This document shows, one piece after another, positions 12,043 to 50,332 of a stretch of 64,000 bases of DNA. Origin of the DNA: Parcubacteria group bacterium Gr01-1014_8 (GTDB lineage: Bacteria; Patescibacteriota; Minisyncoccia; Phycocordibacterales; UBA2100). Every line of letters begins with the position of its first letter. Position 1 is the first letter of the stretch. Location: assembly GCA_007376385.1 (NCBI GenBank), contig VMGC01000002.1, positions 64,001 through 128,000 on the forward strand. Reading direction: 5' to 3'. The notes under the pieces were generated by a model. It was not told the origin of the DNA, searched no databases, and worked only from the letters and a program-made list of their open reading frames with translations. The translations under genes and the position numbers were made by a program.

Positions 12043-12141
12043 CCCCATGAGAGAAATACTTTCGATATACCTATGAACATGATTGAACAGATCTACATGT
12101 GGGAGACAACAAAACATTCAAGCAGTCTCTCTCACGGGGTA
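12043..12141. repeat. Inverted-repeat pair unit U0, variant form: ACCCCATGAGAGA ... 71 bp ... TCTCTCACGGGGTA
   Basis: Right arm ends at the ATG of pilin gene 1 (12141). Confidence 0.55.
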
Positions 12142-12488
12142 TGACGAACATCAGACGAGTACTGAGGATCGCACACTGGACATTTTTCTTCGTGCTGCTG
12201 CCGTCCTTGGTTATGGCGCAAACGCTGCAAAATCCGACGCAGTTTCCGACCATTCAGCGTTTTATTGAAGGCGTACTGAAGGCGGTCGTATACATTGCGA
12301 TGCCTATCATTGCGCTTTTTATGGTGTATGCCGGGTTCCTTTTTGTTAAGGCGCGCGGAAATTCTGGAGAACTCGAGAATGCCAAGAAAAATTTTGTGTA
12401 CGTCATTATTGGCGCAATTCTCATCCTCGGCGCATGGGTATTTGCAACGCTTATCGGCGGAACCGTCAGTCAGCTCGTCGGCTCATAG
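12141..12488 (+). CDS. TrbC/VirB2-like pilin-type small membrane protein, paralog 1
   Basis: Signal peptide ..LLPSLVMA|QTL, two hydrophobic helices, conserved 'IIGAILILGAWVF..L' segment shared by all paralogs. Confidence 0.6.
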   Translation: MTNIRRVLRIAHWTFFFVLLPSLVMAQTLQNPTQFPTIQRFIEGVLKAVVYIAMPIIALFMVYAGFLFVKARGNSGELENAKKNFVYVIIGAILILGAWVFATLIGGTVSQLVGS

Positions 12489-12489
12489 C

Positions 12490-12795
12490 ATGACTACATT
12501 TAGACGCATTGGATATCTGATTCTCATCCTCGGCGCGCCGCTCGTCGTCGCGGCAGCGCCTCGCACCTATAGGGAACTTGTCGAATACCTCATTAAAATA
12601 ATGAATTACACGATAGGTACGTTGATAGTTCTTGGGCTGGTGACGTATTTTTACGGCGTTGCGCACAATATAATAAGATCTAAAGAAGGCGATTCAGGCC
12701 AGCAGAGGAGTTTTATTTTGATGGGTGTCGTCGTGATATTCGTCATGGTGTCGGTGTGGGGAATACTTCGTCTCCTTAGAACGACGTTCTTCTAG
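12490..12795 (+). CDS. TrbC/VirB2-like pilin-type small membrane protein, paralog 2
   Basis: Starts 2 nt after paralog 1. Contains 'ILMGVVVIFVMVSVWGILRLL'. Confidence 0.6.
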   Translation: MTTFRRIGYLILILGAPLVVAAAPRTYRELVEYLIKIMNYTIGTLIVLGLVTYFYGVAHNIIRSKEGDSGQQRSFILMGVVVIFVMVSVWGILRLLRTTFF

Positions 12796-12803
12796 TTTGA
12801 AAT

Positions 12804-13118
12804 ATGCGCGCGATCCGGGAACAGAGGAGACAATGCTTTGCCGGGGCTTCCGCCGTCATTTTCGGGATGGTCTCGCTTCCTTTTTTAGCGAACGCCCTCA
12901 CGCTCGCAGAAATGCGCGATGCGGCCGTACCCTTTCTGTATGGGATCATTGGTTTTTTCGGGGCGCTTGCATTCGGCATTTTTGGGGCAGGTCTTGTTGT
13001 TTATCTGGTTCGTATGAGTTTGGATAATCGTATGTATGGTATCGATATCATGATATGGGGGGTTACCATCCTTTTTGTCGTTGTCCTTCTCATCGGGCTT
13101 CTGGTGTGGATACAATAA
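12804..13118 (+). CDS. TrbC/VirB2-like pilin-type small membrane protein, paralog 3
   Basis: 'IMIWGVTILFVVVLLIGLLVW'. Confidence 0.55.
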   Translation: MRAIREQRRQCFAGASAVIFGMVSLPFLANALTLAEMRDAAVPFLYGIIGFFGALAFGIFGAGLVVYLVRMSLDNRMYGIDIMIWGVTILFVVVLLIGLLVWIQ

Positions 13119-13199
13119 GTGATTAGAAGGGGGGTTATTATGGCTGGAGGGCGAAATCGCGCGGGCCGCAGGCTTGCATGATCCACGAGCGAAGACGCA

Positions 13200-13420
13200 A
13201 AATCACGTATTCGTGCACGCCCATGAACCAATTTTGGTTTTTGACAACCAGATCTAGCGCGTAAGAAATGTAAAGGTGTATGCCATGTCAGCGAACCCGA
13301 GGCGTATTCGAAACGATCGGCCGAACCAAAATTTGGTGCTGGGTTATCCACACAGAACCGACCTTGGCGCCTTTTTGCGCTATCAGGGGGATACAATAAG
13401 ACTACTTACTGGCGACGTAA
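13200..13420 (+). pseudogene. Possible remnant of a deleted pilin paralog: a duplicate of the pilin-4 leader followed by a 12-nt match to the pilin-3 3' end (ggatacaataag), with no pilin body
   Basis: 13215-13350 aligns to 13530-13665 (gcccatgaaccaaYtttgg ... ggccRaaccaaaRtttggtgcKgggttatc). Confidence 0.35.
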
Positions 13421-13436
13421 GGCGAGAGAAACGACA

Positions 13437-13478
13437 GTGTAACTCACTTTCGTTTCCGAGCCGAGGAGCCAGCAAAAA
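13437..13478 (+). repeat. Conserved ~40-nt element, copy 2 (gtgtaactcactttcgtttCCGAGCCGAGGAGCCAGcaaaaa)
   Basis: See copies at 1729 and 50171. Confidence 0.6.
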
Positions 13479-13529
13479 TATTTTTTTACCAAGTCAACTT
13501 ATTGATATTTACTATGAGCGCACGACCTG

Positions 13530-13663
13530 CCCATGAACCAACTTTGGCCTCCAACAACGGTCATCGTGTAGGGAAAGAAAGTTTGAAATATGCCTTGTCA
13601 GCGTACGCTGGGGTGTCGCGAAATTTCTTGGCTAGGCCAAAGTTTGGTGCGGGGTTATCGACT
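13530..13663 (+). promoter_or_regulatory. Structured 5' leader of pilin gene 4: inverted repeats aaccaactttggcc / ggccaaagtttgg separated by ~76 nt
   Basis: Inverted repeat seen directly. The same architecture is present in the duplicate at 13215-13350. Confidence 0.4.
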
Positions 13664-14011
13664 ATGTGGGTGCTGATAGCGGGCACTTTTCTTTTGCCTG
13701 CACTCGTCTCTGCCCAGACTCTCCTGAACACGCTCGCGCTCGTCAATACGTTCCTCAACGCGCTCATCGGTCTTTTCATTACCCTTGCCATCGTCGCGTT
13801 CTTCTGGGGACTCATCAAGTACTTGGTCAATATGGGTTCCGAGAATGCGAAAGAAGGCATTCAGATAATGCTCTGGGGCATCATCGCAATTTTCGTCATG
13901 GTCTCCATTTGGGGAATCATCCGGTTGCTCCAAGCTACGTTCCGTGTCACATCAACTGACCCGGTCATTCCAAAAGGTATTCAGATCAACACTGGAGGGG
14001 GAAACTTTTAA
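13664..14011 (+). CDS. TrbC/VirB2-like pilin-type small membrane protein, paralog 4
   Basis: MWVLIAGTFLLPALVSA|QTL signal peptide; 'IMLWGIIAIFVMVSIWGIIRLL'. Confidence 0.6.
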   Translation: MWVLIAGTFLLPALVSAQTLLNTLALVNTFLNALIGLFITLAIVAFFWGLIKYLVNMGSENAKEGIQIMLWGIIAIFVMVSIWGIIRLLQATFRVTSTDPVIPKGIQINTGGGNF

Positions 14012-14074
14012 ACGTGGCCATTTTGATTCGAACCTGCGGGATTCTGGATTGGGGTTCCTAGGTCTGGGATAGCT

Positions 14075-14377
14075 ATGGAAGCTGGAATGATGGTGCTGCA
14101 GAGGTTCAAGGAATATATCCTTGACCCGACTATTTATCTTATCCTGACAGCAGGACTCCTTTTGTTTATTTACGGTCTTGTGCTCTTTATCTACAAGATG
14201 CGAGAGGGCAGCGACTATAAGGAGGGCCTGTCGCACATGCTCTGGGGCATAATCGGCATGTTTATTATGGTATCCGTGTACGGCATTATCGCGCTCATCA
14301 TAAACACGATCGGCGCTGACCCGACTCAACCTGATCTAAGCAGGATACCTGAAGCAAATCCCGGATTCTTTAAGTAA
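14075..14377 (+). CDS. TrbC/VirB2-like pilin-type small membrane protein, paralog 5
   Basis: 'HMLWGIIGMFIMVSVYGIIALI'. Confidence 0.55.
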   Translation: MEAGMMVLQRFKEYILDPTIYLILTAGLLLFIYGLVLFIYKMREGSDYKEGLSHMLWGIIGMFIMVSVYGIIALIINTIGADPTQPDLSRIPEANPGFFK

Positions 14378-14852
14378 TTGTCGAAATGACAGTCGGCCAT
14401 CGCCGCCTGTACTCCAGATAAACGAGTACTATTATCGCGCAGTCATATGCGGAAAGTGCGATAAGCCATAGTGAATGCGTCTGTGTGTACAGATACAGCT
14501 GAAATAGTGCAAAAAGAGCGAGGAGTACTGACGCGATGGGGAACATTATTTTTTTGTGCATTAAGAGCCCCGATGCGAGAATCAGATTTATCAGTGCACT
14601 AATGAATAAATACAGAGCGGCAAATTCTTTTCCCGCTTGCGTGACATGCGACACGTTTGAAAGCAGCACGTTGGCTAATACATCATTCGGGTCCTCTACT
14701 AACTCCTTTGAGACGACGCTTATTGCGAGGGCAGAAAGGGTTGCGCCGCTTGTGAAAAAGATGATTACCGCGCCGATCAATTCGGCAATTGCGTGAAGTC
14801 CTTTGAGGATGACAGCAACCTCGAAGAAGCGATGCAGAAATGACCGTTGCAT
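14370..14852 (-). CDS. DUF2127-like integral membrane protein (start taken at MQRSF, downstream of the tRNA)
   Basis: Four TM segments. The longer ORF extension overlaps tRNA-Leu, so it was trimmed. Confidence 0.45.
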   Translation of the reverse strand: MQRSFLHRFFEVAVILKGLHAIAELIGAVIIFFTSGATLSALAISVVSKELVEDPNDVLANVLLSNVSHVTQAGKEFAALYLFISALINLILASGLLMHKKIMFPIASVLLALFALFQLYLYTQTHSLWLIALSAYDCAIIVLVYLEYRRRWPTVISTIT

Positions 14853-14854
14853 AG

Positions 14855-14936
14855 TGGGCAGGGGGAGATTCGAACTCCCATGCCTTGCGGCGCCGCGTCC
14901 TAAGCGCGGTACGTCTACCAGTTTCGCCACCTGCCC
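14855..14936 (-). tRNA. tRNA-Leu (anticodon TAG), class II with long variable arm
   Basis: Hand-folded: acceptor GGGCAGG/CCTGCCC, anticodon loop cTTAGGa, T-loop GGTTCGAATCC. Confidence 0.8.
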
Positions 14937-15062
14937 GACAGGACGAATATACCATGACAAGGTACTATTTCGTGCTATATTTTTCGAACCGCCCACTCAC
15001 GAAATTCGTGTGGACGGGCAAACGGAGGCTAAGCAAATGAAAATGCCTTTCGCTCCGCATCA

Positions 15063-15135
15063 CCGCCCGTAGCTCAGTTGGTAGAGCAGCTCGCTCTTAA
15101 CGAGACGGTCGTAGGTTCGATTCCTACCGGGCGGA
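15063..15135 (+). tRNA. tRNA-Lys (anticodon CTT)
   Basis: Acceptor CCGCCCG/CGGGCGG, D-arm GCTCAGTTGGTAGAGC, anticodon loop cTCTTAa, T-arm GTAGGTTCGATTCCTAC. Confidence 0.8.
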
Positions 15136-15825
15136 CTGGATCGTGTCCTCTGCAACATCGTGTTTCTTTTTGCGCACAAGAATGAGTAGAACCCAAACGG
15201 CAATGAACGCCAGTACGAATTTCGGACCTATCGCCGCTATCGCTTTATCACCAAGAAAATATGCGAGCGTGGTCCACATCGTATTCCAAAGCAAGGTGGC
15301 AGCGATCGAATAGAGTGCGACCGTGCGAAATGGCATTGAAAGAATTCCTGCTGCGGTGGATGTGAGTGCGCCGAGGTTCGGGTGCCAATAGGTGAGGAAG
15401 ATGGCACGCGGACCGTATCGTATTAGTTGTGACTTTGCTTTTTCGAGGGCTTCTCGAAATCCCAGTGCAACAAGGAGCCGATACCAACCGTATTTGCCGA
15501 TGTAAAAATTAAACGTGTGAGCGACCAAAAAACCGAGAGATGTGATAAATAAGACCTCACCCAATTGTACGAGGTCGGAGCCCGCGAATATTGCACCGAG
15601 TACGATCACAAGACTGCCCGGATAATACCAGCCAACCATCAGCGCGGCTTCTAAAATTGCGCTCACAAATACCGTAAGCAGTCCGTAGTTGTCAAAATAC
15701 TCTCGTGCGAGCGAAATGATTTCCTCTTGCGGTGGCAGGTCGAGCAAAGTCCATACAAGATAGAACGAGACGAACGCCGCGAGCGAAAACAAAGGCAACC
15801 AAATGGCAGCTAAAATATCCTTCAT
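15124..15825 (-). CDS. DedA/VTT-domain family membrane protein
   Basis: Multi-TM protein with 'YYPGSLVIVLGAIFAG' and a 'FREALEKAKSQLIRYGPRAIFLTYWHP' segment typical of DedA proteins. The 3' end overlaps tRNA-Lys by ~12 nt. Confidence 0.55.
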   Translation of the reverse strand: MKDILAAIWLPLFSLAAFVSFYLVWTLLDLPPQEEIISLAREYFDNYGLLTVFVSAILEAALMVGWYYPGSLVIVLGAIFAGSDLVQLGEVLFITSLGFLVAHTFNFYIGKYGWYRLLVALGFREALEKAKSQLIRYGPRAIFLTYWHPNLGALTSTAAGILSMPFRTVALYSIAATLLWNTMWTTLAYFLGDKAIAAIGPKFVLAFIAVWVLLILVRKKKHDVAEDTIQSAR

Positions 15826-15830
15826 AAGGC

Positions 15831-16934
15831 TTACGTCGTATCAATTATTCGCGGAAGTTGTTCAGGAATATGCGCCAGAACTTCATAGGGAATAGTACCT
15901 ATCATTTTCGCTATGGATTCGACTGAGTTCTTATCATCGGGGTTGCGGCTCATAAGGATCACGTCGTCGCCGATCGCTGTCTCGGGAGCATCTGTTATAT
16001 CAACGCCGATCATATTCATGCTTACTCGCCCGACAATGGGGCAGGTCTTATCTTTGGTAGTTACGAATCCTGTATTCGAAAGCCTGCGGTCGATCCCTTC
16101 GAAATATCCGCCGGGGATGGTGGCGATGACCATAGGGTGTTCTGCTGTAAAGGTAGCGTTGTAGCCGACTGATTCGCCCGCGTTAATTCGCCGAATTGAA
16201 GCCACGACCGAGCGCATCTCAAGAACTGGTTTCAGATCCATCCTTTTATTATTTGACACATCGAATCCATACAGACCGATTCCGAGCCGAGCCATATTTG
16301 TGTTTGCTGCTGTTATAGATGCAAAGCCAGTCGTAGCGGCTACATGGCGGTATCGAATGCTTGAGAACGCGCGGTCAAAGAAATCCGATGCATCACTCCA
16401 ATTTTTCAATTGTGTATTGGTAAACGAAGGGTTTTCGCCGTCTGCATCGGCAATGTGCGTGCAGATACCTTCAACTGTAAGAAGCGGCTGAATTTTTATG
16501 AGCGCGATCGCTTCATTAAAATCGCTCTCGGCGATTCCTTGCCGATGCATGCCTGTATCGATCTTTATATGAACTCTGAGCGGAGTTTTGATGATTTTGG
16601 AGAGCTGTCTCAGCTCCTCAATGTCTGTTATAGCGAGCGTAGTATCAGAAGGGATACTGGATACGACGTCCGATGGCCTCACATACCCTACTATCAATAT
16701 ATTTTTCTTGCTGCGTGCTTTTCGCAATGCGACAGCCTCCGAAAGGGAATTTACGACCAGAAAAGGAATTGTTTCTGATTCTAAAATGTTCGAGACTTCG
16801 GGAAGTCCGTGTCCGTAGGCATTGCTTTTGACAACAGGAGCGATGTCGATGTTCGGATATACACGCTGGTATTCTTGCAGATTGTGCAGAAGATTCTCCT
16901 TTGAAATGCCGATTTGTATTAAGGAAGTATCCAT
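15831..16934 (-). CDS. alr: Alanine racemase
   Basis: PLP-lysine motif 'APVVKSNAYGHG'. Start taken at MDTSLIQ, just downstream of tRNA-Leu(TAA). Confidence 0.85.
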   Translation of the reverse strand: MDTSLIQIGISKENLLHNLQEYQRVYPNIDIAPVVKSNAYGHGLPEVSNILESETIPFLVVNSLSEAVALRKARSKKNILIVGYVRPSDVVSSIPSDTTLAITDIEELRQLSKIIKTPLRVHIKIDTGMHRQGIAESDFNEAIALIKIQPLLTVEGICTHIADADGENPSFTNTQLKNWSDASDFFDRAFSSIRYRHVAATTGFASITAANTNMARLGIGLYGFDVSNNKRMDLKPVLEMRSVVASIRRINAGESVGYNATFTAEHPMVIATIPGGYFEGIDRRLSNTGFVTTKDKTCPIVGRVSMNMIGVDITDAPETAIGDDVILMSRNPDDKNSVESIAKMIGTIPYEVLAHIPEQLPRIIDTT

Positions 16935-16936
16935 TG

Positions 16937-17019
16937 TGCCGGGAGTGGGACTCGAACCCACACGCCCTTGCGGGCATTCGATCTTAAGTCGAACGCGTAA
17001 ACCATTCCGCCATCCCGGC
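16937..17019 (-). tRNA. tRNA-Leu (anticodon TAA), class II
   Basis: GCCGGGATGGCGGAATGG...cTTAAGa...GGTTCGAGTCC...CCCGGCA. Confidence 0.8.
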
Positions 17020-17074
17020 ATTGTCTCGCCTTAGCTTTAGCGTCGGCGGACGTACTATTTCTACCACGCCGCTG

Positions 17075-17503: not shown

Positions 17504-17599
17504 ACGTGCATCCTGCAACAATGGGATGGCGCAGTCAATTTCAACGTGTGGGCAGGCAGCCGTCTGGATAATTTCTTAAAACGGCGTTACCATCCGCGG

Positions 17600-18380: not shown

Positions 18381-18710
18381 CTACTTCCGGGTCAGTTCAT
18401 CTATTCGCTGTCGATTTTCTTCCCCAATATCAAGCACAAAATCGACGGTGGGAACGTTCATTAAAACCGTCTTTGCTTTCAAAAAATCGTGAAAGTCGGT
18501 TCGCACGCGCTTAAGGAACGCGATGGCATCTCCTTGCTGCTCCTTCGGAAGCACCGAAACGAATATCGACACATTTTTTAGGTTGGGGGAAATGTCTGCA
18601 CGGGTCACAGTGATGAGAGATTTGCGGTTTGATTCTCGAGCGATGAAGTCAGCTGCGTGGTGCGCCATCGCTTCGGCAACTTTAATTTGTCGGCGGGACG
18701 GAGCGTTCAT
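18381..18710 (-). CDS. rbfA: Ribosome-binding factor A
   Basis: 109 aa, 'R..RV.E.....a..i..e..d.....vTvt.v..s.Dl..a.if' pattern. Confidence 0.75.
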   Translation of the reverse strand: MNAPSRRQIKVAEAMAHHAADFIARESNRKSLITVTRADISPNLKNVSIFVSVLPKEQQGDAIAFLKRVRTDFHDFLKAKTVLMNVPTVDFVLDIGEENRQRIDELTRK

Positions 18711-18808
18711 ACCCCGTGAGAGAAACTATCTAAAGCTACTAAGCTTGGTCGCATGCTGTTGGAAAGGATTGATTTCATATATATTTTAAAGAATATTCTC
18801 TCATGGGG

Positions 18809-20317
18809 TCATACTGTTTTTGTTACGAAACATTCAAGCATGTCGCCCTGTGCGACCTCAAATTGCGAAGTTATCTCTGCGCCGAATTCGCCGCCTGTTT
18901 CGACTCTATCCACATTTTGCTTATGCGATTGCAAGTTTGTTATTTTTCCCAAGCCTACTTCTACTTTCCGCCTCGTTACTCGAACGGAGCACCCGCGCTC
19001 GATCTTCCCTTCGCTTACGGAGCCGCCAATGACGTGGATATTTTTTCGTGAGCCAAATTGTTTCAACACTTTTGCTCGGCCTAGCTGCTCTTCGATGTGC
19101 CTCTTAGGTGCTGCTTCCTTCAATAATTCCTCAAGTCGCTCCGTCAACTTATAGATGATGTCGAACGTCTCGATGTGAATACCGTGCTGTCTCGCTCGCT
19201 CGCGGGCCGTTGCGTCTACGGTTACGTTGAATCCGACAACGGTTGCGGGAGTTGCCGAAGACGCGATAGCCGATTTCACATCGTTCTCGGAAATGTTGCC
19301 GATTTCCGACTGCACGATGCGCACCGCCGCGTGCTCGTCTTTGATGCGCGATACTTCGTGAACAATGGCTTCAAGCGAACCCGATGCGTCCGCCCGAACG
19401 ATAATGGGCAAGATAAATTGTCCCTCTGGCGTTTCTCCTGAAAGGGAATCACTCTCGCGTTTTTGATGCGAGAACTCTTTTGACCGTGCTTCTTCCGCGT
19501 CGCGCTTGTTCTTAAATGTCTGAAATCCGATCCCGACAGTAGGCAATTCGTCGAAACCAACGAGAAGAACAGGGGTTGAGAAGCTGGCCTCTCGGATGCT
19601 TTTTCCCTTATGGTCTTCCATAATTCGTACCGGCGCGATTGCCCGCCCTGCTTGAATTGCCATGCCGCTTTTTAACGTTCCATCCGTTATCACCAGCGTT
19701 GCTGCAATGCCGCGTTTTTGGTCTCGGTGCGCTTCTATCACATATCCCGTCGCGGGTTTCGAGGCGTCTCCCTTATATTCCTGCAATTCAGCAACAAGGA
19801 GGACGAGGTCTAGAAGTTCTGTTACGCCGGTGCCTGTCTTTGCGGAGATAGCCGTCCACGGCACATCGCCGCCGAGCTTTTCAAGGAAGACGCCTCTTTC
19901 GAGCAAACTTCCTTGCGTTCGTGCTATGTCGGCATTCGGCTTGTCTATTTTATTTATCGCGACAACGAGAGGAATGGCGCTCTCCCGAATACTCGCAAGA
20001 GCTTCGACCGTTTGGGCCTTGACGCCATCATCTGCTGCAACTACAAGGATCGCGATATCAGCTATGTTCGCACCGCGTGAACGTATCGCTTGAAATGCAG
20101 CGTGTCCTGGTGTGTCGATGAACGTGATGCGCTTTTTAACGCCGTCTTTTTCGTGCTCGACTTCGTATGCCGCGACGTGCTGCGTGATGCCGCCTGCTTC
20201 TCCTGCGACGACGTTGGATTTGCGGATGAAATCTAAGAGCGTCGATTTACCGTGATCGACGTGTCCCATTACAACAACGATAGGGGGCCTCTCCGTGTTG
20301 TTGGTTGTTGGTGTCAT
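18809..20317 (-). CDS. infB: Translation initiation factor IF-2 (short form, 502 aa)
   Basis: G-domain 'VVVMGHVDHGKSTLLD', 'DTPGH', 'NKID'; IF-2 C-terminal beta-barrels. Confidence 0.9.
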   Translation of the reverse strand: MTPTTNNTERPPIVVVMGHVDHGKSTLLDFIRKSNVVAGEAGGITQHVAAYEVEHEKDGVKKRITFIDTPGHAAFQAIRSRGANIADIAILVVAADDGVKAQTVEALASIRESAIPLVVAINKIDKPNADIARTQGSLLERGVFLEKLGGDVPWTAISAKTGTGVTELLDLVLLVAELQEYKGDASKPATGYVIEAHRDQKRGIAATLVITDGTLKSGMAIQAGRAIAPVRIMEDHKGKSIREASFSTPVLLVGFDELPTVGIGFQTFKNKRDAEEARSKEFSHQKRESDSLSGETPEGQFILPIIVRADASGSLEAIVHEVSRIKDEHAAVRIVQSEIGNISENDVKSAIASSATPATVVGFNVTVDATARERARQHGIHIETFDIIYKLTERLEELLKEAAPKRHIEEQLGRAKVLKQFGSRKNIHVIGGSVSEGKIERGCSVRVTRRKVEVGLGKITNLQSHKQNVDRVETGGEFGAEITSQFEVAQGDMLECFVTKTV

Positions 20318-20352
20318 AGGGAGTTCGTGATGCCATACGAATTGGGCGAGTA

Positions 20353-20452
20353 TACCCCATGAGATAAAAAACTCATAGCCCAGTGATATAGGGTATTTGT
20401 CAAATCAAAATTCGTCGCGCAAAAAGTGTCAAGCGATCTATCTCACGGGGTA
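20353..20452. repeat. Inverted-repeat pair unit U1: TACCCCATGAGATA ... 72 bp ... TATCTCACGGGGTA, in the divergent infB / cysteine-desulfurase intergenic region
   Basis: Seen directly. The left arm is 35 nt upstream of the infB ATG. Confidence 0.65.
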
Positions 20453-20533
20453 TACGCCCAAAAGTCAAAATTTGAAAGTCAGCGGCGCGTGCAGTCACTT
20501 CCGAAATTAAGTATTTAAGCCTAGAATCACGGC

Positions 20534-21715: not shown

Positions 21716-21862
21716 ACTTGTGTCTGGTTTCGCGGGAGCAATTTTAAGTGATGTTTCAGCGTGCGCTTAAAGAGCAATTGATGTATGAATGAAGCACAAA
21801 GGCGAAACGAAAAATGCCAAAGTTAGTGCTCGGACGTTGCAAAATCTCGTCCATGATACTCT

Positions 21863-21960
21863 ACCCCGTGAGATAAAGTCATTCGGTGTATGTGGAGGTG
21901 ATGTTGCTTGGTGACTAATATCGAACGCGGCTCATAACTTTTCGCCATATCTCATGGGGT
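21863..21960. repeat. Inverted-repeat pair unit U2 (TACCCCGTGAGATA ... 72 bp ... TATCTCATGGGGT)
   Basis: Directly abuts U3. The junction reads atctcatggggtCTaccccgtgagat, itself a 12-bp palindrome. Confidence 0.65.
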
Positions 21961-21962
21961 CT

Positions 21963-22066
21963 ACCCCGTGAGATAACTGTTCGTCTTTTGTTTCGAATTG
22001 TAGTTCATGTATCCATAGTACAATGTCGGTAATGAGACATCTATACACCTCCTATCTCATGGGGTA
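21963..22066. repeat. Inverted-repeat pair unit U3 (TACCCCGTGAGATA ... 76 bp ... TATCTCATGGGGTA), 16 nt upstream of the 22083 gene
   Basis: Seen directly. Confidence 0.65.
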
Positions 22067-22082
22067 TATATAGAAGAAAGCT

Positions 22083-30064: not shown

Positions 30065-30115
30065 CAAGTAAGATGGTCAAATTGGGGAGCTTTTTCGCGT
30101 GCTACAATATTCCAG

Positions 30116-30499
30116 ATGAGAGCAGTGCGTTTTGCGCTCGCGTACCTAACTCCCGTTTCTTTAGCGCTTCTGCCGCTCGTTTCAAACGCTGCTTTGCCGG
30201 ATTCCATCGTTCCGTGTAAGGGGCTCGACTGCACAGTGTGCAGCTTGGCGACACTTGCTCAAAACTTGCTGAATGCGGGGATTTTCATGGCTATCTTCAT
30301 ATCCGCGCTTCTCTTTGCCTATGCAGGGTGGCTGTATCTCACCAACGAAGCTATCGGTCAGCAGCAGAAGGCAAAAGGCATGTTTCTGAATGTGGTAGTT
30401 GGACTCGTTCTCATTCTCGGCGCATGGCTCATCGTTGATACTTTGATGAAGGTTATGCTCGGAGGCAGCTACATGCCGTGGAATAGCGTTTGTTCATAG
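30116..30499 (+). CDS. TrbC/VirB2-like pilin-type small membrane protein, paralog 6
   Basis: Signal peptide MRAVRFALAYLTPVSLALLPLVSNA; 'VVGLVLILGAWLIVDTLMKVMLGG' matches paralog 1. Confidence 0.55.
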   Translation: MRAVRFALAYLTPVSLALLPLVSNAALPDSIVPCKGLDCTVCSLATLAQNLLNAGIFMAIFISALLFAYAGWLYLTNEAIGQQQKAKGMFLNVVVGLVLILGAWLIVDTLMKVMLGGSYMPWNSVCS

Positions 30500-30615
30500 G
30501 CCCTGCACGTCTTCGTATTGACCCCATTAGAGAAGGATCATTTCCTTCCAGCTTGTTCTGCGTATTCGCTCTTCAAAAATTGATCGAAATAGGACCAAAG
30601 CATTCTCTAACGGGG

Positions 30616-30644
30616 TTGACCTAGAGCCGCTATTTGGCTATAGT
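30616..30644 (+). promoter_or_regulatory. Canonical sigma70-type promoter: TTGACC - 17 bp - TATAGT, 14 nt upstream of the rpmG ATG
   Basis: Hexamers and spacing seen directly. Confidence 0.5.
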
Positions 30645-37160: not shown

Positions 37161-38671
37161 GCAGGAGAATAAAGCCGCTTGTATTGGTGGTGCTCGACGG
37201 CTGGGGGTATCGCGAAGACCCGGAACATAACGCAATTGCTGAAGCCAAGATCCCTTTCTTTGATTCGCTTTGGAAAAAGTATCCGCATAGTTTACTGACT
37301 GCGAGCGAGGAAAGCGTAGGACTCCCGGTAGGGCAGATGGGTAATAGCGAGGTGGGGCACATGACCATTGGTGCCGGCAAGGTCATTGATACGGATCTCG
37401 TGCGAATTACAAAAGCGATGCGAGGCGGAGAGTTCAGAGGCAATTCCGCGTTCAATGGATTGTTCCAGCACTGCCTGAGGCATAATTCGACACTGCATGT
37501 CATAGGGTTGGTGTCGACTGGGGGAGTGCATAGTCACATCGAGCATCTTTACGGGTTTCTGCGGGCTGCTAAGGACGCAGGCGTGAGCAATGTGGCGATT
37601 CACGCCATTACTGACGGGCGCGATACTCTGCCGAGAAGCGGCGCAGACTATCTTGTAGACCTCGAGAAAAATCTGAAAGAAATCGGCGTAGGCCGTATTG
37701 CCACGGTCTGCGGTCGCTTTTTCGCTATGGATAGAGATCAGAATTGGGACAGACTCGCACGGGCCGAAGCGGCAATGTTCAAGGGCGCTGCCCCGATGCG
37801 GACATCAAGGCCGTCAGATTTCCTTCGGGCACGCTATGCGGAGGGTACAATAGATGAGTTGCTGGAACCAATCGTCTGTACGGATCTTGAAGGCGGAGCG
37901 TGCACAATTCAAAAAAATGACGGGGTATTTATGTACAACTTCCGGGCAGATCGCGCGAGAATGTTGTCGAAGCGTATTGCGTCAATGTGCGATAAGGACA
38001 ACGTATTTCTCGTTACGATGACTGAATACGACAAGAATGTGAAAACCAATGTCGCATATCCTCCTGTCACCATAACAACTACGCTTGCGGCGGAGATATC
38101 GAAGGCGGGACTTTCTCAAGTGCACATTGCAGAAACGGAAAAATATGCGCATGCAACGTACTTTTTGAACGGCGGTCAGGAAAAACCCCATGATGGAGAG
38201 GAGCATGTACTCATAGAGAGCCGCAAAGACATAGCAACCCATGACATGGCACCGGAGATGCGTGCACGCGAAATAACTGATGCCGCGATAGAACGGATAC
38301 AAAAAGGCGTCGATTTTGTATTCATCAATTACGCAAACGTGGACATGGTGGGGCACACTGCAAACACAAAAGCAATAGTGAAGGCAGTCGAGACAGTCGA
38401 TTCAGAACTTAAAAGACTCGTTGAATCAGTACAGGGGGCAGGCGGCGCAGTATTTGTAACGGCAGATCACGGGAATGCAGAACAAAACTTTGATGTTGCA
38501 ACAGGCGAGAAGCATACAGCACACACCCTAAATGTTGTCCCGGCAATCCTCACAATTGACCGAGGCTTGCTTCGAGACGGGGGTCTTGCTGATGTGACGC
38601 CCACCATTCTTTCGCTCTTTGGATTGCACGTACCTAAAGTAATGACTGGTCAGAATCTCTACAGAAGTTAA
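37157..38671 (+). CDS. gpmI: 2,3-bisphosphoglycerate-independent phosphoglycerate mutase
   Basis: '[11 protein letters not shown]', '[11 protein letters not shown]'; 504 aa. Confidence 0.85.
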
Positions 38672-39528
38672 TAGTCTTTTGCCACAGATATCCATCGGAT
38701 TGCCGTATTTCGTCGCCAGTACGTCATTTGTCGCTTCGCGTAATGCCAGATGTCGCGTTCAAGTTCCTCTGCCATTTGTTTTTTCGTTACATCGCCTTGC
38801 AAGTACTGCGAAAGGTGACGATATTCCAGCCCTAGTTCGTGCATACGTTTCCACGATACTCCTTGTGAATGCAACCGTTTTACTTCAGTTATCATTCCTT
38901 GTTTCATTCGCGCCAGAAGTCGCTTGTGTATCTTTGCGCGGAGCACTGTGTTTCCCGGGTTAAGGCCGATCCATTCGATGTCATAGGGAAGCGGTTTTAT
39001 TCTCGCCGCTGGTACTTTTCCCAACTTTTTCGCGATCTCGATGGCACGGACGAGTCTTACCGGATTGTGCTTGTCTATCGAGAGTGCGCGCTTCGGGTCC
39101 ATAATTTTGAGCATTGCGTATAACTGTGACGCCGATTTTTTCGCTAGCTTTGAACGCAGCGCGGGGTCCGCAGGGACATTCGGGAGACTGATCCTCCCCA
39201 ACAGCGCGTCTATGTAAAAGCCTGTTCCTCCGCACACTATCGGCACCTTGCCTCGTGCCAGAATGTCATTAATGGCGTCACGACCTTTCTTTTGGAGATC
39301 GCTTGCCGTAAATACTTTTTTGGGGGAAGAGACATCAAGCAAATGATGTCGAATTCCCTTCATCTCGCGTTTTGTTATTTTGCCTGAACCGATATCGAGA
39401 CCTGTATAGACTTGCCGAGAATCTGCTGAAATTACCTCTCCATCAATTTTTCGTGCAAGTTCCACGGCAAACGCACTCTTTCCCGAAGAGGTCGGACCAA
39501 CGATGGCAAAAACCTTTGGCTGACTCAT
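38668..39528 (-). CDS. miaA: tRNA dimethylallyltransferase
   Basis: P-loop 'VGPTSSGKSAFAVELA', 'SADSRQVYTGLDIGSGK'. Start taken at MSQPKVF; the longer MGYIVPR start lies inside the IR motif. Confidence 0.85.
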   Translation of the reverse strand: MSQPKVFAIVGPTSSGKSAFAVELARKIDGEVISADSRQVYTGLDIGSGKITKREMKGIRHHLLDVSSPKKVFTASDLQKKGRDAINDILARGKVPIVCGGTGFYIDALLGRISLPNVPADPALRSKLAKKSASQLYAMLKIMDPKRALSIDKHNPVRLVRAIEIAKKLGKVPAARIKPLPYDIEWIGLNPGNTVLRAKIHKRLLARMKQGMITEVKRLHSQGVSWKRMHELGLEYRHLSQYLQGDVTKKQMAEELERDIWHYAKRQMTYWRRNTAIRWISVAKDY

Positions 39529-39541
39529 GCGAGGCACTATA

Positions 39542-39644
39542 TACCCCATGAGATAGTATCGACAATATTATTTCTGAGTCGATATATATTTTGGCCATGC
39601 TGTTATTTCGGTGGAAAGATGGAAAGTGTTTATCTCACGGGGTA
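39542..39644. repeat. Inverted-repeat pair unit U4 (TACCCCATGAGATA ... 75 bp ... TATCTCACGGGGTA), in the divergent miaA / DCC-gene intergenic region
   Basis: Left arm is 13 nt from the miaA ATG. Right arm is 10 nt from the 39655 ATG. Confidence 0.65.
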
Positions 39645-39654
39645 GACTACAGAT

Positions 39655-45002: not shown

Positions 45003-45333
45003 ATCAATTTATTTTCTGAAGCGCCTTTGCCGGCCTGTCCCGTTAGACACGAAGCTGTCTAACCGAGACGATCCTACTATTACAAGCTTCATACGAGCAC
45101 GATTGATATCCTAGAAGCCTAACACGTGTCAAGCGGATGTAATAAAAATGTTATTGACTCTCAGTGATATTTATATGAGTCTGGACGCAAGCAAGGGGAA
45201 GGAGGTGCGCAGTGTACAGGATCTTCTTGCTGGTTCGGTTGCTCTCCTTTTCGGGGGAAGTTACTTCAACGTGGGAGATCGATCTTCCGCCGAACGCTGA
45301 GTTTCCGCTCTGCATGCCTCCATGCAGCGCGTC

Positions 45334-46194: not shown

Positions 46195-46210
46195 TGTACT
46201 ATCTATTGTA

Positions 46211-46274
46211 TACCCCGTGAGATAAACAGGTCTGACCTTCAACAGGAAAGCGGATGTGCATATCTCATGGGGTA
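46211..46274. repeat. Inverted-repeat pair unit U5 (TACCCCGTGAGATA ... 36 bp ... TATCTCATGGGGTA), half-length spacer, in the divergent dprA / serS intergenic region
   Basis: Seen directly. 16 nt from the dprA ATG and 32 nt from the serS ATG. Confidence 0.65.
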
Positions 46275-46306
46275 TGCCGTTATTTCCGGCGCTTCCCTTT
46301 AGACCT

Positions 46307-47578
46307 ATGCTTGACATCAAATTCATCCGAGAAAACAAAGATATTGTTGCGGCAGGCGCGCGGAAGAAGCATATAGATGTCGATATAGACAGACTTCTTC
46401 AGCTTGACGATAAACGCAGAGAGCTTCAACAGGCGCTGGAAGCTAAGAGGGCCGAGCAGAACAATGCATCAAATGCGATAGCAGGCGCAAAAAATGATAG
46501 AGAGCGGCAGGAGCTTATTGCTCGAATGCAGCAAGTCAAAGAGACGATGAAAATGGAAGAAACATCACTTGAGGAAATATTAAAAGAATGGCGAGCCTTG
46601 ATGGTGCGGGTTCCGAACGTTCCGGATATCTCAGTCCCTGATGGTGACAGCGATGCGGATAATAAGGAAGTAAAGAAGTGGGGAGAGGCAGCTGAATTTG
46701 AGTTTGAGCTGAAAAATCATTCCGAATTGATGTTGATGCATGACATGGCCGATCTTGAGCGAGGCGCAAAAGTTGCAGGCTTCAGGGGATATTTCTTGAA
46801 AAACGATGGGGCACGATTGGTGTGGGCCTTAGAAAGATTCGTACAAGATAGATTCATGAACCGCGAGGGGTTTGTTCCTGTCGTTGTTCCTTCCATGGTT
46901 CGTCGAGAGCCTTTTATCGGCACCGGATATTTGCCCCAGAGCGAAGAGGATCTGTATAAAACGCAAGATGGTGACTATCTTGCGGGTACCGCGGAAGTTG
47001 CCGCTATGGGATATTACATGGACGAAATAGTTGATAAAAGATTGCTGCCGATAAAATTCTTTGCATTCTCTCCGTGTTTTCGCCGTGAAGCGGGGAGTCA
47101 CGGCAAAGACACGAAAGGACTCTTTCGGATCCATGAGTTCGTGAAATACGAGCAGGTAGTCTTATGCGAGGCGAATCATGAAGAATCCGTGCGTCACCAC
47201 GAGGAGTTAACGGCGAATTCGGAAGCTCTCCTGCAGGAATTGAAATTGCCGTATCGCGTTGTGCTGAACTGCGGGGGGGACATAGGTCTCGGGCAAGTAA
47301 AAAAGTACGACATCGAAGCATGGATGCCGTCGGAGAAAAAATATCGCGAGACGCATTCATCATCGTATTTTCATGATTTCCAATCTCGGCGATTGAATAT
47401 TCGTTATCGAGATGATGACGGGACGCTTAAATTCGTCCATTCTTTGAATAACACAGCGCTCGCGATGCCGCGCATCCTCTGCCAAATAGTCGAGAACAAC
47501 CAACACTCTGACGGTTCAATATCAATTCCGGAGGTGCTCCGGGGCTACGTGGGAAAAGATGTGATATCCAAGCACTAA
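46307..47578 (+). CDS. serS: Seryl-tRNA synthetase
   Basis: N-terminal coiled-coil 'MLDIKFIRENKD', class II motifs ('FRREAGS', 'GTGYLP'). Confidence 0.9.
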   Translation: MLDIKFIRENKDIVAAGARKKHIDVDIDRLLQLDDKRRELQQALEAKRAEQNNASNAIAGAKNDRERQELIARMQQVKETMKMEETSLEEILKEWRALMVRVPNVPDISVPDGDSDADNKEVKKWGEAAEFEFELKNHSELMLMHDMADLERGAKVAGFRGYFLKNDGARLVWALERFVQDRFMNREGFVPVVVPSMVRREPFIGTGYLPQSEEDLYKTQDGDYLAGTAEVAAMGYYMDEIVDKRLLPIKFFAFSPCFRREAGSHGKDTKGLFRIHEFVKYEQVVLCEANHEESVRHHEELTANSEALLQELKLPYRVVLNCGGDIGLGQVKKYDIEAWMPSEKKYRETHSSSYFHDFQSRRLNIRYRDDDGTLKFVHSLNNTALAMPRILCQIVENNQHSDGSISIPEVLRGYVGKDVISKH

Positions 47579-47676
47579 TTTTGCCATTTTATTCGCTGAA
47601 CGATCCGGTTGCGAATGTGGCGGGTTTATAAAGGGAGACGTTATATAGAGAAAATAACCGGACACATATAGAAGCC

Positions 47677-48564
47677 ATGGCAAAATTTAGTGGGGGACCA
47701 TTACGTCGACTAAGCGTTCGTAGAAATTTGCCAACAGCAATACGCAGACGGCCTGTCTCCGGTCAGCTTGCGCTGGCGTTCCGGCCAAGGGAGAGGCTCG
47801 CCAGGCGCAGGCGCCGTGCGCGACTGCGCCTGGCGTTCATAGTGTTCTTATCGATCGCAGGTCTTGGGTGGGGAGCAGGGTTCCTTTCTTATAACGATAG
47901 ATTGACAATTCAAGACATACAGATATCTGGTACATCGGCACTATCGACGCGAGTGGTACAAGCCGCTTTCGAAGCGAATTTATACGATGGAGCGTACCAT
48001 TTTCTCTCTCGTGAAAATATTTTTCTGTACCCAAAGGGAACGTTAGCCGCAGAACTGAAAGAAGAGTTGCCACGCCTTAAAAGTGTTTCAATATCACGCG
48101 AGTCACTTCTTGCGCAGGCGGTTAAAGTGACCGTCGAAGAAAGGGGTGCGCAGTATGTGTGGTGCAATAGTGAGAGCTGTTACGTGATGGATTCTGACGG
48201 GTTTATCTTTGCTCCAGTCGATAATGCCACCACCGAATATACGTTTAGAGGCGGTTTGGCGGGAAATTCCTCGCCAGTCGGGCAGACATTTCTCCGCGGG
48301 AGGTTAAATAACATTGTGGAACTCTTTAAACGTCTCGATGAAGCAGGTTACAAAGCGACCGGAGCAACCGTGGAGAACGAGAAGGATTACCGCGTTCTGC
48401 TCGGAAAGGGATTTTCATTGAAAGTGACCTTTGATTCCGAACCGCACGAGGTAGTCCGAAATTTAGAGTTGATTCTTGATTCCGATGCGATTAAGGATGA
48501 CCTTGAAAAACTCGACTATGTGGATTTACGGTTCGGCAATCGCGTATACTACCAGCTACGATAG
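47677..48564 (+). CDS. FtsQ/DivIB-like cell division protein (TM anchor + POTRA)
   Basis: Arg-rich N-terminus, one TM segment, then 'IQDIQISGTSALSTRVVQAAF' POTRA-like start. No ftsA/ftsZ adjacent. Confidence 0.45.
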   Translation: MAKFSGGPLRRLSVRRNLPTAIRRRPVSGQLALAFRPRERLARRRRRARLRLAFIVFLSIAGLGWGAGFLSYNDRLTIQDIQISGTSALSTRVVQAAFEANLYDGAYHFLSRENIFLYPKGTLAAELKEELPRLKSVSISRESLLAQAVKVTVEERGAQYVWCNSESCYVMDSDGFIFAPVDNATTEYTFRGGLAGNSSPVGQTFLRGRLNNIVELFKRLDEAGYKATGATVENEKDYRVLLGKGFSLKVTFDSEPHEVVRNLELILDSDAIKDDLEKLDYVDLRFGNRVYYQLR

Positions 48565-48567
48565 CGT

Positions 48568-49122
48568 ATGACAGATCATCAAGGCGGGCGCGGAAACGGA
48601 AATGGCGAGAAAAAGGGGGAACTCACATCGAGCGATGTGTTTGCGGCTCGGCGCGAACTTCAGGAAAAGCAGCGGAAAATAGCATCACAGCAAAGGGATG
48701 AAAAAGCAGCAAGAGAAAAGCACGACAAACTTCAAGGAGAAAAAGTCAGTATCGGATTGGATAATTCTGCACTTGTGTGGCGGGTGAAGGATGAAACTGA
48801 AAAGTTTCTCAAAGAAAACGAATGGAAAATTATTCCTGAAATTGACGCTGCGCGGGATCGATTTGATAAGCAACTCGTTATCAGACAGTTCGGCGGCCCG
48901 GCCGTATCGGCCAGATCTGGACGATTTGCCCCGGTACTTGTGACTTTCTTTGGCGATGCGGATGATTCTCCAGCTGGGGTTGAAAAAAGGCGTGTTCTCA
49001 AGAATTGGATAGGGAATAAGTACGCGGGCATAGAAGGTAATGAGTGGCCAATTGTTGTCGATACGAGAGCAGATTACGAAGTGTACATAGAGTGGCAGCC
49101 GAAAGAGAGGCCCGCAGGCTAA
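48568..49122 (+). CDS. Hypothetical protein
   Basis: ORF only. Confidence 0.3.
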   Translation: MTDHQGGRGNGNGEKKGELTSSDVFAARRELQEKQRKIASQQRDEKAAREKHDKLQGEKVSIGLDNSALVWRVKDETEKFLKENEWKIIPEIDAARDRFDKQLVIRQFGGPAVSARSGRFAPVLVTFFGDADDSPAGVEKRRVLKNWIGNKYAGIEGNEWPIVVDTRADYEVYIEWQPKERPAG

Positions 49123-49125
49123 ACG

Positions 49126-50160
49126 TTGCTCGTCTCTCGTGTTATCGTGCGCAAAATGAAAAACTTCTGGGACACATTGCCGCGCCCTTTTTTCATACAG
49201 GCGCCGATGGAGGATGTGACGGACGCCGCTTTTCGGCGTCTCATCGCACGTTATGGCAAACCGGATGTGATGTTCACAGAGTTCACTTCAGCGGATGGTC
49301 TCGTTCTTGCACCACCTTCAGGACAGAAGATACTGCGGAAAAAGTTGGCGTTTGATGAGAGCGAGAGGCCTGTTGTTGCGCAATTATTTAGCGCGATGCC
49401 GGAGCGTATGGAAAAAGCTGCGGAATTGATAACCGAACTCGGATTCGACGGACTCGATATAAATATGGGTTGTCCAGTGGATGAGGTCGTGAAAAGCGGG
49501 GCAGGGGCCGCACTCATCAACGACCACGAGCTTGCGAGAGAGTTGGTTCGCGCGGCTGACCGAGGGCTCCGATCCGCCGGCCGGCGGATGCCTATCTCGA
49601 TAAAAACACGGATCGGGTATCGCGAAAATGAGCTTGCGTCGTGGCTGCCCGTTCTTTTAGAAGTGGAACCGGCGATGGTGGCAATTCATGCTCGAACTCG
49701 AAACGAAATGTCTGCAGTGCCTGCCAGATGGGACACGGTGAAGGAGGCAGTTCATATTCGAGACCGGCTCGGCTCGAAGACTTTTATTGTCGGCAACGGT
49801 GACGTACGGGATATTTCTCACGCGCGGGAACGCATAAAAGAAAGCGGCGCCGATGGTGTGATGCTCGGGCGAGCTATTTACGGAAATCCTTGGTTGTATT
49901 CAGGCCGGACGGATGCACCGTCCCCGAAAGAGCGCATCAACGCGCTCCTTGAACACCTCTCACTATTCGAAGAATTGATGCAGGGGACAACGAACTATGC
50001 GACCATGAAAAAGCATTTCAAGGCGTACATTTCTGGCTGGCCTGCCTGCCGCGACGAGCACGGCGCAGGCAGGGACGGCGCGAAAGATCTGCGGGTGAGG
50101 CTTATGGAGACGGAAGCGATATCGCAAGCAAGAGAAATTCTTACTGGCGACGTAGAGTGA
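49126..50160 (+). CDS. tRNA-dihydrouridine synthase (Dus family)
   Basis: 'PFFIQAPMEDVTDAAFRRL', 'DINMGCPVDEVVKSGAGAAL'. Confidence 0.8.
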   Translation: MLVSRVIVRKMKNFWDTLPRPFFIQAPMEDVTDAAFRRLIARYGKPDVMFTEFTSADGLVLAPPSGQKILRKKLAFDESERPVVAQLFSAMPERMEKAAELITELGFDGLDINMGCPVDEVVKSGAGAALINDHELARELVRAADRGLRSAGRRMPISIKTRIGYRENELASWLPVLLEVEPAMVAIHARTRNEMSAVPARWDTVKEAVHIRDRLGSKTFIVGNGDVRDISHARERIKESGADGVMLGRAIYGNPWLYSGRTDAPSPKERINALLEHLSLFEELMQGTTNYATMKKHFKAYISGWPACRDEHGAGRDGAKDLRVRLMETEAISQAREILTGDVE

Positions 50161-50164
50161 GAGC

Positions 50165-50188
50165 AGAGAACATGTACTCATGTTCTCT
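50165..50188 (+). terminator. Perfect 10-bp-stem hairpin agagaacatg-tact-catgttctct, 5 nt after the dus stop; forms the 5' part of conserved-element copy 3
   Basis: Seen directly. Followed by a pyrimidine-rich tract. Confidence 0.5.
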
Positions 50189-50210
50189 TCCGAGCCGAGG
50201 AGTCAGAAAC
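50171..50210 (+). repeat. Conserved ~40-nt element, copy 3 (catgtactcatgttctcTTCCGAGCCGAGGAGTCAGaaac)
   Basis: See 1729 and 13437. Confidence 0.6.
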
Positions 50211-50232
50211 TAGAGCCAGTTTACCAGTGATA

Positions 50233-50332
50233 TACCCCGTGAGATATAAACCTGTATGTCGCACTCTCGGCGCTCAATTTTGAGAAGATGTGACGCTATA
50301 GGCGGATAGAGCCGGACTATCTCATGGGGTAT
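50233..50332. repeat. Inverted-repeat pair unit U6 (TACCCCGTGAGATA ... 72 bp ... TATCTCATGGGGTA), 9 nt upstream of the dnaX ATG
   Basis: Seen directly. There is no divergent gene on the left side. Confidence 0.65.

Follow-up and report, generated by a model that had tools for sequence, protein, structure and literature searches.

Paired inverted-repeat units in the window

We analyzed a 64,000-nt stretch of the genome of Parcubacteria group bacterium Gr01-1014_8 (GCA_007376385.1, contig VMGC01000002.1, positions 64,001 to 128,000; hereafter the window), in which short units made of two inverted arms recur beside genes such as infB, rbfA, serS, and dnaX. A scan for TACCCCRTGAGATA with up to two mismatches returns 17 matches in the window against 0.41 expected, with a largest shuffle count of 3, and 16 of the 17 form eight inverted pairs. 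Together with two units that have variant arms (30522-30615 and 63582-63647), the window contains ten paired units of 60-101 bp, none of which carries an open reading frame (ORF). The initial annotation had described seven of them, and all seven are present within 1-2 nt of where it placed them, but it overlooked those at 18712-18808, 30522-30615, and 63582-63647. No arm in the window is unpaired, in agreement with its proposal that the pair, rather than the arm, is the unit. The arms are terminal inverted repeats (TIRs) of 12-13 bp, (A)CCCC(A/G)TGAGATA and its complement, and the 12-nt cores of eight units enclose an interior of 70-77 nt, while the other two interiors measure 36 and 43 nt.

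The first long unit (12038..12144, plus strand; core 12043-12139, consisting of CCCCATGAGAGA, 73 nt, and TCTCTCACGGGG) is flanked by TATGA direct repeats, with the stop codon of a solute-binding-protein gene on one side and the ATG of a pilin-like gene on the other. A second long unit (18707..18813, minus strand; core 18712-18808), with direct repeats of TCATA (read as TATGA on the gene strand), separates the infB stop from the rbfA start, and a third (20351..20454, plus strand; core 20355-20450), with the target-site duplication (TSD) TATA, lies between the divergent infB and cysteine desulfurase genes. Two long units on the minus strand then stand in tandem, one at 21860..21963 (core 21864-21959; TSD TCTA) and the other at 21960..22068 (core 21964-22064; flanks TCTA/TATA, with one mismatch), 16 nt upstream of a trypsin-like protease gene. 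The long unit between a pilin-like gene and rpmG (30518..30619, plus strand; core 30522-30615; TSD TTGA) has the compensated variant arms CCCCATTAGAGA/TCTCTAACGGGG. Divergent gene pairs also enclose a long unit between miaA and a DCC1-like gene (39540..39646, plus strand; core 39544-39642; flanks TATA/TAGA) and a short unit with the 36-nt interior between dprA and serS (46209..46276, minus strand; core 46213-46272; flanks TATA/TATG), and a long unit separates dus from dnaX (50231..50333, minus strand; core 50235-50329; TSD TATA). The last unit (63578..63651, no strand assigned; core 63582-63647; TSD TGAA) is short, and its arms, CCCCGTTAGAGA and TCTCTAACGGG, which are 43 nt apart, are of the same variant type as those at 30522-30615. 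In addition, a mini element at 50986..51021 (plus strand), composed of CCCCAGTGAGACA, a 7-nt loop, and TGTCTCACGGGG followed by CAGG, lies in frame within dnaX. We called the gene starts beside the units from the ORFs and homology.

We then compared the arms and the interiors. A sequence logo of 127 non-identical units from many genomes is informative only at T-N-N-A-CCCC-(A/G)-TGAGA-TA, with no other conserved position inside the unit or beyond the flanks, and every arm position is paired in over 95% of units, apart from the polymorphic A/G site. Nine of the ten window units have one CCCCATG arm, while the other arm (reverse complement) is CCCCGTG, so that a hairpin would contain an A-C mismatch on one strand and a G-T wobble on the other; the tenth unit (63578..63651) is of the G/C type in both arms. 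The orientation of this polarity in the window is mixed relative to both gene direction and the uniformly positive GC skew. As the pattern of our genome scan (described below) preset the A...C polarity and a 58-88-nt spacing, only the window and additional units found without this seed give unbiased polarity figures; among the latter, 13 are heterotypic, 11 are G/C, and none is A/T. GAGATA, GAGAGA, and TTAGAGA arms coexist in the window, and the mini form in dnaX has GAGACA. Each variant of one arm has its counterpart in the other (GAGAGA/TCTCTC twice, TTAGAGA/TCTCTAA twice, and GAGACA/TGTCTC in the dnaX mini element), with no unmatched change in any unit.

The interiors of the window units show no folding signal compared with shuffled sequences (Z-scores from -1.8 to +1.7) and no pairwise similarity beyond that of random sequence in either orientation. 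The earlier statement that the spacers are unrelated thus applies within the window, but not in general, since copies in other genomes share interiors. At positions other than the A/G site, G-T wobbles and A-C mismatches are balanced, so that no RNA strand could be assigned. At the gathering threshold, Rfam 15 matches only tRNAs in the window; the best E values are 2 for the units and 0.06 for the ORF-bearing element described below.

An ATG, or a GTG upstream, within or beside an arm falsely lengthens mechanically called ORFs (MGYIVPRM..., MGYTPSM...) at 38668-39549 (minus), 50324-51424 (plus), and 46256-47578 (plus), whose true starts lie at about 39530, 50345, and 46307, respectively; 46307 fits the deposited SerRS of 423 aa. 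The false 'MGY' extensions noted in the initial annotation are real artifacts of the ORF track at the first two of these ORFs. Small genes that weakly match type IV secretion system pilin or conjugal pilin-like families are found at 12141-12488, 13502-14011, and 30110-30499, and two of them adjoin units.

Target duplication and choice of insertion site

In 80 of 143 units, the tetranucleotides that flank CCCC...GGGG form identical direct repeats; 2000 shuffles gave 27 on average and 37 at most. The duplicated tetranucleotides have the form TNNA, with TATA the commonest. Non-palindromic direct repeats (TCTA, TGTA, TACA, TGAA, TTCA, TAGA, TGGA, and TTGA) occur 32 times against 2.4 expected, and flanks that are only inverted repeats occur in 5 of the 143 units. 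We therefore dropped the idea that the flanking 4 nt extend the stem in the Patescibacteria units; for the ORF-bearing copies, whose flanks read TTCA...TGAA/TAAA, such an extension is possible. In the window, the flanks of seven of the ten units are perfect repeats (TATA twice, TCTA, TTGA, TGAA, and TATGA twice), and those of the remaining three differ by one base. The sequences would fit a 4-bp duplication around CCCC...GGGG as well as a 2-bp duplication around ACCCC...GGGGT.

The preferred target TNNA is usually TATA, with which the -10 hexamer of these genomes begins. The empty infB and dnaX sites of relatives read TATACT, and the gene-side junction GGGG-TATACT indicates that the -10-like hexamer beside the arm is derived from the old target and is not made by the arm. 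At dnaX, the hexamer is followed by the ATG at a distance of 6 nt, as in a leaderless gene. The TATGA on both sides of the units at 12043 and 18712 points to an ancestral ATGA stop/start overlap that is now doubled; in both cases the TGA of the upstream gene and the ATG of the downstream gene are preserved. At 30522, the right-hand copy of the duplicated TTGA, together with CC, forms the -35 element of the rpmG promoter (TTGACC-17-TATAGT).

In such a compact genome, the tolerated TNNA sites would be mainly -10 TATA boxes (TATACT) and ATGA stop/start overlaps. Because the duplication leaves the signal intact on either side, insertion there is tolerated, and landing in these sites places the arms next to -10 hexamers and start codons. 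The closeness of arms to start codons, to which the initial annotation drew attention, is thus real, but it results from the choice of insertion site and not from a function of the arms.

More generally, several genes (dnaX, serS) lack a Shine-Dalgarno sequence and carry a hexamer of the TATACT or TATCAT type at exactly 6 nt before the ATG (window 50330-50347; L202 11160-11180; L204 11620-11640; L203 6095-6115), which is the geometry expected of leaderless mRNAs in this lineage. Nested and tandem arms, joined by GGGGTCTACCCC or GGGGTTCACCCC, are found at L038 2700-3290, L043 1720-2300, and L061 3210-3335, which suggests frequent entry of new copies into the duplicated flank of an older copy, as at window 21960-21963.

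Empty sites in relatives, recent copies, and in-frame insertions

The closest relatives of the metagenome-assembled genome (MAG) that contains the window are Kaiserbacteria. We compared synteny with relatives that keep the gene order and share 69-87% identity in IF-2 or SerRS. All seven window units that could be tested are absent from the syntenic sites, where a single copy of the target remains. This is the outcome of the mobility check suggested in the initial annotation. A clean empty site, for example, reads GCTATACTG where the window has GATATA-(unit)-TATACTC. At the infB promoter, L118 reads GGGCGTATACTCGCG and L120 reads GGCGAGTATACTCACG, compared with GGGCGTATA-(unit)-TATACTCGCC in the window, and between dus and dnaX, L202 reads GCTATACTCTCCCCATG and L204 reads GCTATACTGCCCGAATG, compared with GATATA-(unit)-TATACTCCTTCCATG. 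The infB-rbfA gap is 2-4 nt in L118, L119, and L120 versus 98 nt in the window, and the desulfurase-protease gap is 15-45 nt in relatives versus 367 nt in the window, where it holds two units. The dprA-serS gap (17-28 nt in L201, L203, and L204) and the miaA-DCC gap (43 nt in L202) are likewise free of units. In a reciprocal case, L107 has a unit upstream of an S1-like gene, where the window reads CACTATATATTG. Elsewhere, single MAGs carry copies whose interiors are 88-100% identical, six in one MAG and two or three in others. As a separate observation, L119 carries a LAGLIDADG homing-endonuclease-like gene just downstream of rbfA (5829-6548), and the window has none at this position.

Mini elements of 36-39 nt have also entered protein genes in frame. 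The insertion in dnaX (50345-51424) is exactly 36 nt long and adds 12 residues, PSETGKLSHGAG, between domains II and III; the dnaX genes of L201, L202, and L204 lack these 36 nt and read TCGAAAGATAAAAAG. The topA gene of L201 (6290-6340) contains an in-frame mini element, GACCCCATTAGAGAGG...CCTCTAACGGGGCAGG, which adds 13 residues, DPIREASSSNGAG, and is absent from the window and from L203. The two mini elements have a common end, GGGGCAGG, and both encode ...GAG.

Distribution and spacing of the units

A scan of a one-genome-per-species set for ACCCCATGAGA-N58-88-TCTCACGGGGT returned at least 109 loci. Among the matches listed are Kaiser-, Nomura-, Pacei-, Harrison-, Campbell-, and Komeilibacteria, 'Saccharibacteria', and other Patescibacteria, as well as MAGs labeled Verrucomicrobia, KSB1, Planctomycetota, Calditrichaceae, Melioribacteraceae, and Actinomycetota, labels which may cover mis-binned contigs; one of these matches lies on a 2-Mb contig. 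No units were found in viral contigs. Among the matches listed, the spacing of the 11-mers clusters at 73-78 nt although 58-88 nt was allowed, and smaller classes occur near 40 and 10 nt. In a total of 150 units, arm distances vary by about 10 bp and fall into distinct classes of roughly 10, 40, and 75 nt. This spread and the separate classes are incompatible with the fixed helical phasing that had been proposed for the arms.

An ORF-bearing element that encodes a GIY-YIG nuclease

In the contig L043, the same arms stand 261 nt apart and enclose a complete ORF of 86 residues. L084, L104, and L110-117 have the same layout, as do L067 and L106, whose arms are of the TTAGA type. The ORF encodes a stand-alone GIY-YIG nuclease domain (PF01541, E about 1e-17, ranging from 5e-17 to 4e-18) of 84-91 aa, typically 87 aa, with no accessory domain. 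The closest structures are the UPF0213 proteins 1zg2 (E 4e-10) and 1ywl, and SLX1 (7wme). The columns Y6, Y8, Y19, G21, H33, E53, R64, and E65, which include the catalytic Y, Y, G, R, H, and E, are invariant (alignment A1), and the product is a predicted nuclease of the stand-alone Slx1-like/UPF0213 type. This type corresponds to the stand-alone Slx1-like proteins of a superfamily survey from 2006, which described them as mainly vertically inherited and did not mention flanking repeats (PMC1564403).

The nuclease gene and the arms overlap. Among the 120 best homologues, 94 end in YLTG, and the codons of these residues, TAT CTC ACG GGG, are the right arm. In an independent, protein-seeded metagenome scan with 69 analyzable ORFs, 63 end in the right arm, which supplies their final codons; a left arm lies no more than about 80 nt upstream in 65, and both arms are present in 60. 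The ORF-bearing element is 265-298 bp long (mode 278-281); its left arm lies 0-15 nt upstream of the nuclease ATG, and its stop codon, TAA or TGA, sits in the flank. The arm bases are invariant, including third codon positions, while adjacent codons vary freely, indicating a constraint on the nucleic acid. Some nuclease subfamilies have compensated arm changes (TTAGATA/TATCTAA, CCGG/CCGG, and CCTG/CAGG). In alignment A2, compensated changes are few (four at one pair and one or two at two others), and a whole-helix shuffle test is not significant, most arm columns being invariable. No pairing beyond the arms was found in the ORF elements.

A similar arrangement occurs with a different repeat. 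In L053 (355-665, Campbellbacteria), another GIY-YIG ORF lies within an unrelated perfect 21-bp inverted repeat, ATCCAGCACTTAACTTTGCTC...GAGCAAAGTTAAGTGCTGGAT, and the right repeat overlaps the last codons and the stop of the ORF. The coupling of a nuclease gene with a bracketing repeat thus recurs. In L110-L117 (about 5900-6300), the GIY-YIG element of protein P0072 interrupts an RHS/YD-repeat frame (WSDGTAA, the element, GRQFDYTFDDIGQL) and has an in-frame TAA directly upstream.

A second type of stand-alone GIY-YIG gene lies directly upstream of tRNA genes (L076, L089, L103, and L201 15300-15700), and its 3' end merges into the 5' end of the tRNA. Upstream of this gene is a partial duplicate of the tRNA 5' half, which is broken by the GC-rich palindrome CCTGCCTGCAGGCAGGCAGG. 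The window contains a degenerate duplicate of the tRNA-Gln 5' half at 52195-52323, about 75 nt upstream of tRNA-Gln and without an ORF, which looks like a footprint of such a tRNA-adjacent GIY-YIG element.

Interpretation of the units as mobile elements

[quoted passage not shown] Of the explanations offered in the initial annotation, the MITE-like mobile unit is therefore the one that is borne out by the duplications, the empty sites, the recent copies in other genomes, and the ORF-bearing element with the same ends. A unit consists of two TIRs around an interior without conserved information, in length classes of about 72, 36, and 8-13 nt, and enters TNNA tetranucleotides, most often TATA, which it duplicates. 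The family spans Patescibacteria and several other phyla, and its ORF-bearing members, of about 280 bp, encode an 87-aa nuclease whose last four residues (Y-L-T-G) are supplied by the right arm and whose stop codon is the TAA or TGA of the flank. The nuclease may mobilize the ORF-less units, possibly in trans. It might read the element ends as a folded hairpin or cruciform, by analogy with the structure-specific Slx1 relatives that read branched DNA; such recognition would explain the compensated arm changes and the constrained length. The cut would presumably be staggered within T^NN^A, and host effects, such as hairpins in 5' leaders and intercistronic spacers, would be by-products.

A more far-reaching proposal is that the units and the ~280-bp ORF elements constitute an undescribed class of prokaryotic mobile element, whose enzyme is the 87-aa Slx1-like nuclease, which recognizes its own ends as a hairpin or cruciform and makes a short staggered cut at TNNA. 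The same nuclease would also drive the abundant ORF-less hairpin elements of quantized length, and the class would be active in Patescibacteria and at least six other phyla and able to enter promoters and, in frame as 36-nt mini forms, essential genes. It would be the GIY-YIG equivalent of the REPIN-RAYT systems discussed below. We put this proposal forward tentatively and give it somewhat less than even credence.

Several observations weigh against a selfish element moved by this nuclease. There is no GIY-YIG gene in the 64-kb window, and the GIY-YIG genes of close relatives are of the different, tRNA-adjacent type without these arms. The flanks of the ORF-bearing copies, TTCA/TTTA...TAAA/TGAA, are not direct repeats, and the interiors of ORF-less units, which may have arisen from the ORF element by internal deletion, show weak likeness to the ORF element on the same contig (z about 1-2.6). 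To our knowledge, no GIY-YIG enzyme acts as a transposase in prokaryotes. Furthermore, the ten window copies have intact and mutually matching arms around unrelated interiors, which is not predicted by a purely selfish element with neutral decay and hints at selection or homogenization acting on the arms. The arms may be retained by selection on the stems (host use, as argued for repetitive extragenic palindromic (REP) sequences), by ongoing action of the nuclease, or because the copies come from many distinct sources.

The main alternative for the enzyme is a conventional transposase. The units would then be MITEs moved by a DDE or HUH transposase encoded elsewhere, with the GIY-YIG gene as a passenger or a lodged homing endonuclease. 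Short TIRs with a 4-bp duplication are typical of DDE elements, and this explanation would also accommodate the lack of direct-repeat flanks in the ORF-bearing copies and the lack of an arm-type GIY-YIG gene in the window and close relatives. However, both arms are kept in 60 of the 69 subfamily members from very diverse metagenomes, and the end of the ORF inside the right arm, with a stop from the flank, points to long co-evolution rather than chance capture. In the second GIY-YIG subfamily, another inverted repeat occupies the corresponding positions, and an informal, non-exhaustive look at about 200 loci revealed no transposase gene between the arms. We regard a conventional transposase as rather unlikely. 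A MITE derived from IS630/Tc1-mariner was rejected, as the duplications are not TA (TTGA, TGAA, TCTA, TGTA, TACA, and TATGA).

It is also conceivable, though we judge it unlikely, that the hairpins, whatever their origin, are now kept by the host as structural RNA or DNA signals (processing sites, stabilizing stems, terminators, or insulators), which would parallel proposals made for REP sequences. The perfectly matched arms of the ten window units around random-like interiors, the four variant units and the dnaX mini element (GAGACA/TGTCTC) with changes compensated in both arms, and the location of units in transcribed leaders and in the infB-rbfA intercistronic spacer are all consistent with such a role. 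On the other hand, relatives are free of units at the same sites, and therefore no conserved function is tied to any site, and a matched variant could equally descend intact from a parent element that already carried it. The A/G polarity is oriented in both ways with respect to transcription, wobbles show no strand bias over A-C mismatches at the other positions, no U-tract for intrinsic termination is present, and the units have no Rfam match.

The remaining proposals of the initial annotation, an operator for a DNA-looping regulator or nucleoid protein and a bidirectional promoter cassette, had in their favor arms beside -10-like hexamers, 0-35 nt from start codons, and a constrained arm spacing, but they are very improbable, because in close relatives these promoters have no unit and already contain the -10 hexamers (TATACT at infB and dnaX), the spacing is unphased in three unrelated classes, arms also face gene 3' ends and occur within coding sequence, identical arms surround a nuclease gene in distant phyla, target-site duplications flank the units, and neither a -35 element nor any other interior position is conserved. 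The absence of a -35 hexamer, noted earlier for the window units, is confirmed by the logo of 127 units, in which the interior carries less than 0.16 bit of information throughout, and a promoter scan found 19 matches versus 22 expected. We also rejected an integron attC site, because the arm lacks the RYYYAAC...GTTRRRY cores and the neighboring genes are housekeeping genes whose synteny is conserved; DNA-uptake sequences, CRISPR-like spacers, attC, and a Y-RNA-like RNA were all dropped given the target duplications and empty sites.

The interpretation as MITE-like mobile elements explains a conspicuous repeat of streamlined Patescibacteria genomes, which accounts for about 1.5% of the window. 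It describes a route into very compact genomes, in which the targets (-10 TATA boxes and ATGA overlaps) are restored by the element's own duplication, and it alerts annotators to false 'MGY' starts and to 12-residue insertions in essential proteins. If the link to the GIY-YIG nuclease is causal, it would provide a role for the large stand-alone UPF0213/Slx1-like family of bacteria, and the nuclease could represent a new class of enzyme in prokaryotic transposition. The system would then be very small (87 aa and 2 x 13 bp) and easy to study in vitro.

Comparison with known systems

In the searchable literature, which is incomplete, we found no report on MITEs in Patescibacteria or on this arm or element, and none linking GIY-YIG genes to MITE- or REPIN-like repeats, all of which is absence of evidence only. 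REPINs, which are REP doublets associated with RAYT genes, have arms that are better conserved than the spacer, as described in two reports (PMC3116915, PMC3337134). Like REPINs, the units are dispersed intergenic palindromic doublets with a favored spacing and the capacity to form hairpins, and in both systems the repeats also enclose the associated single-domain nuclease gene. However, the gene here is a GIY-YIG nuclease (PF01541) rather than an HUH/Y1 transposase, the arm CCCCRTGAGATA is not self-complementary while REPs are imperfect palindromes, the units have clear 4-bp target duplications, and one arm sequence is found across phyla whereas REP sequences are lineage-specific. With an enzyme that is not HUH and arms that are not REPs, the units are not REPINs.

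The nuclease shares its fold and motifs with homing endonucleases (I-TevI and Seg/Mob of phage T4) and with the Slx1-like UPF0213 proteins, and the elements resemble homing endonuclease genes in their selfish behavior. Homing endonucleases, in contrast, have their own DNA-binding domains and neither TIRs nor ORF-less derivatives.

Among short repeats, the Correia elements (NEMIS) of Neisseria are about 100-150 bp long, with TIRs of about 26 bp, TA-containing duplicated targets, and conserved interiors; their ends make or adjoin -10 boxes, and they are co-transcribed into hairpins. The units resemble them in size, TA-rich target, and promoter proximity, but have 12-13-bp repeats of different sequence and unconserved interiors, and we know of no GIY-YIG partner of Correia elements. 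Rickettsia palindromic elements, 100-150 bp long, are unrelated in sequence to the units, and no nuclease partner of theirs is known to us; they are nevertheless similar in that palindromic elements, here the minis in dnaX and topA, lie in frame in essential genes, add a short peptide, and are missing from orthologues.

The Stowaway and Tourist MITEs are eukaryotic elements moved by DDE enzymes (mariner and PIF/Harbinger), with TA or TWA duplications. The duplication of the units is TNNA instead, but, as in these MITEs, the family is defined by its terminal repeats, its duplication, and its size, and interiors are unrelated between subfamilies. In every respect that could be tested, the units have the properties of MITEs.

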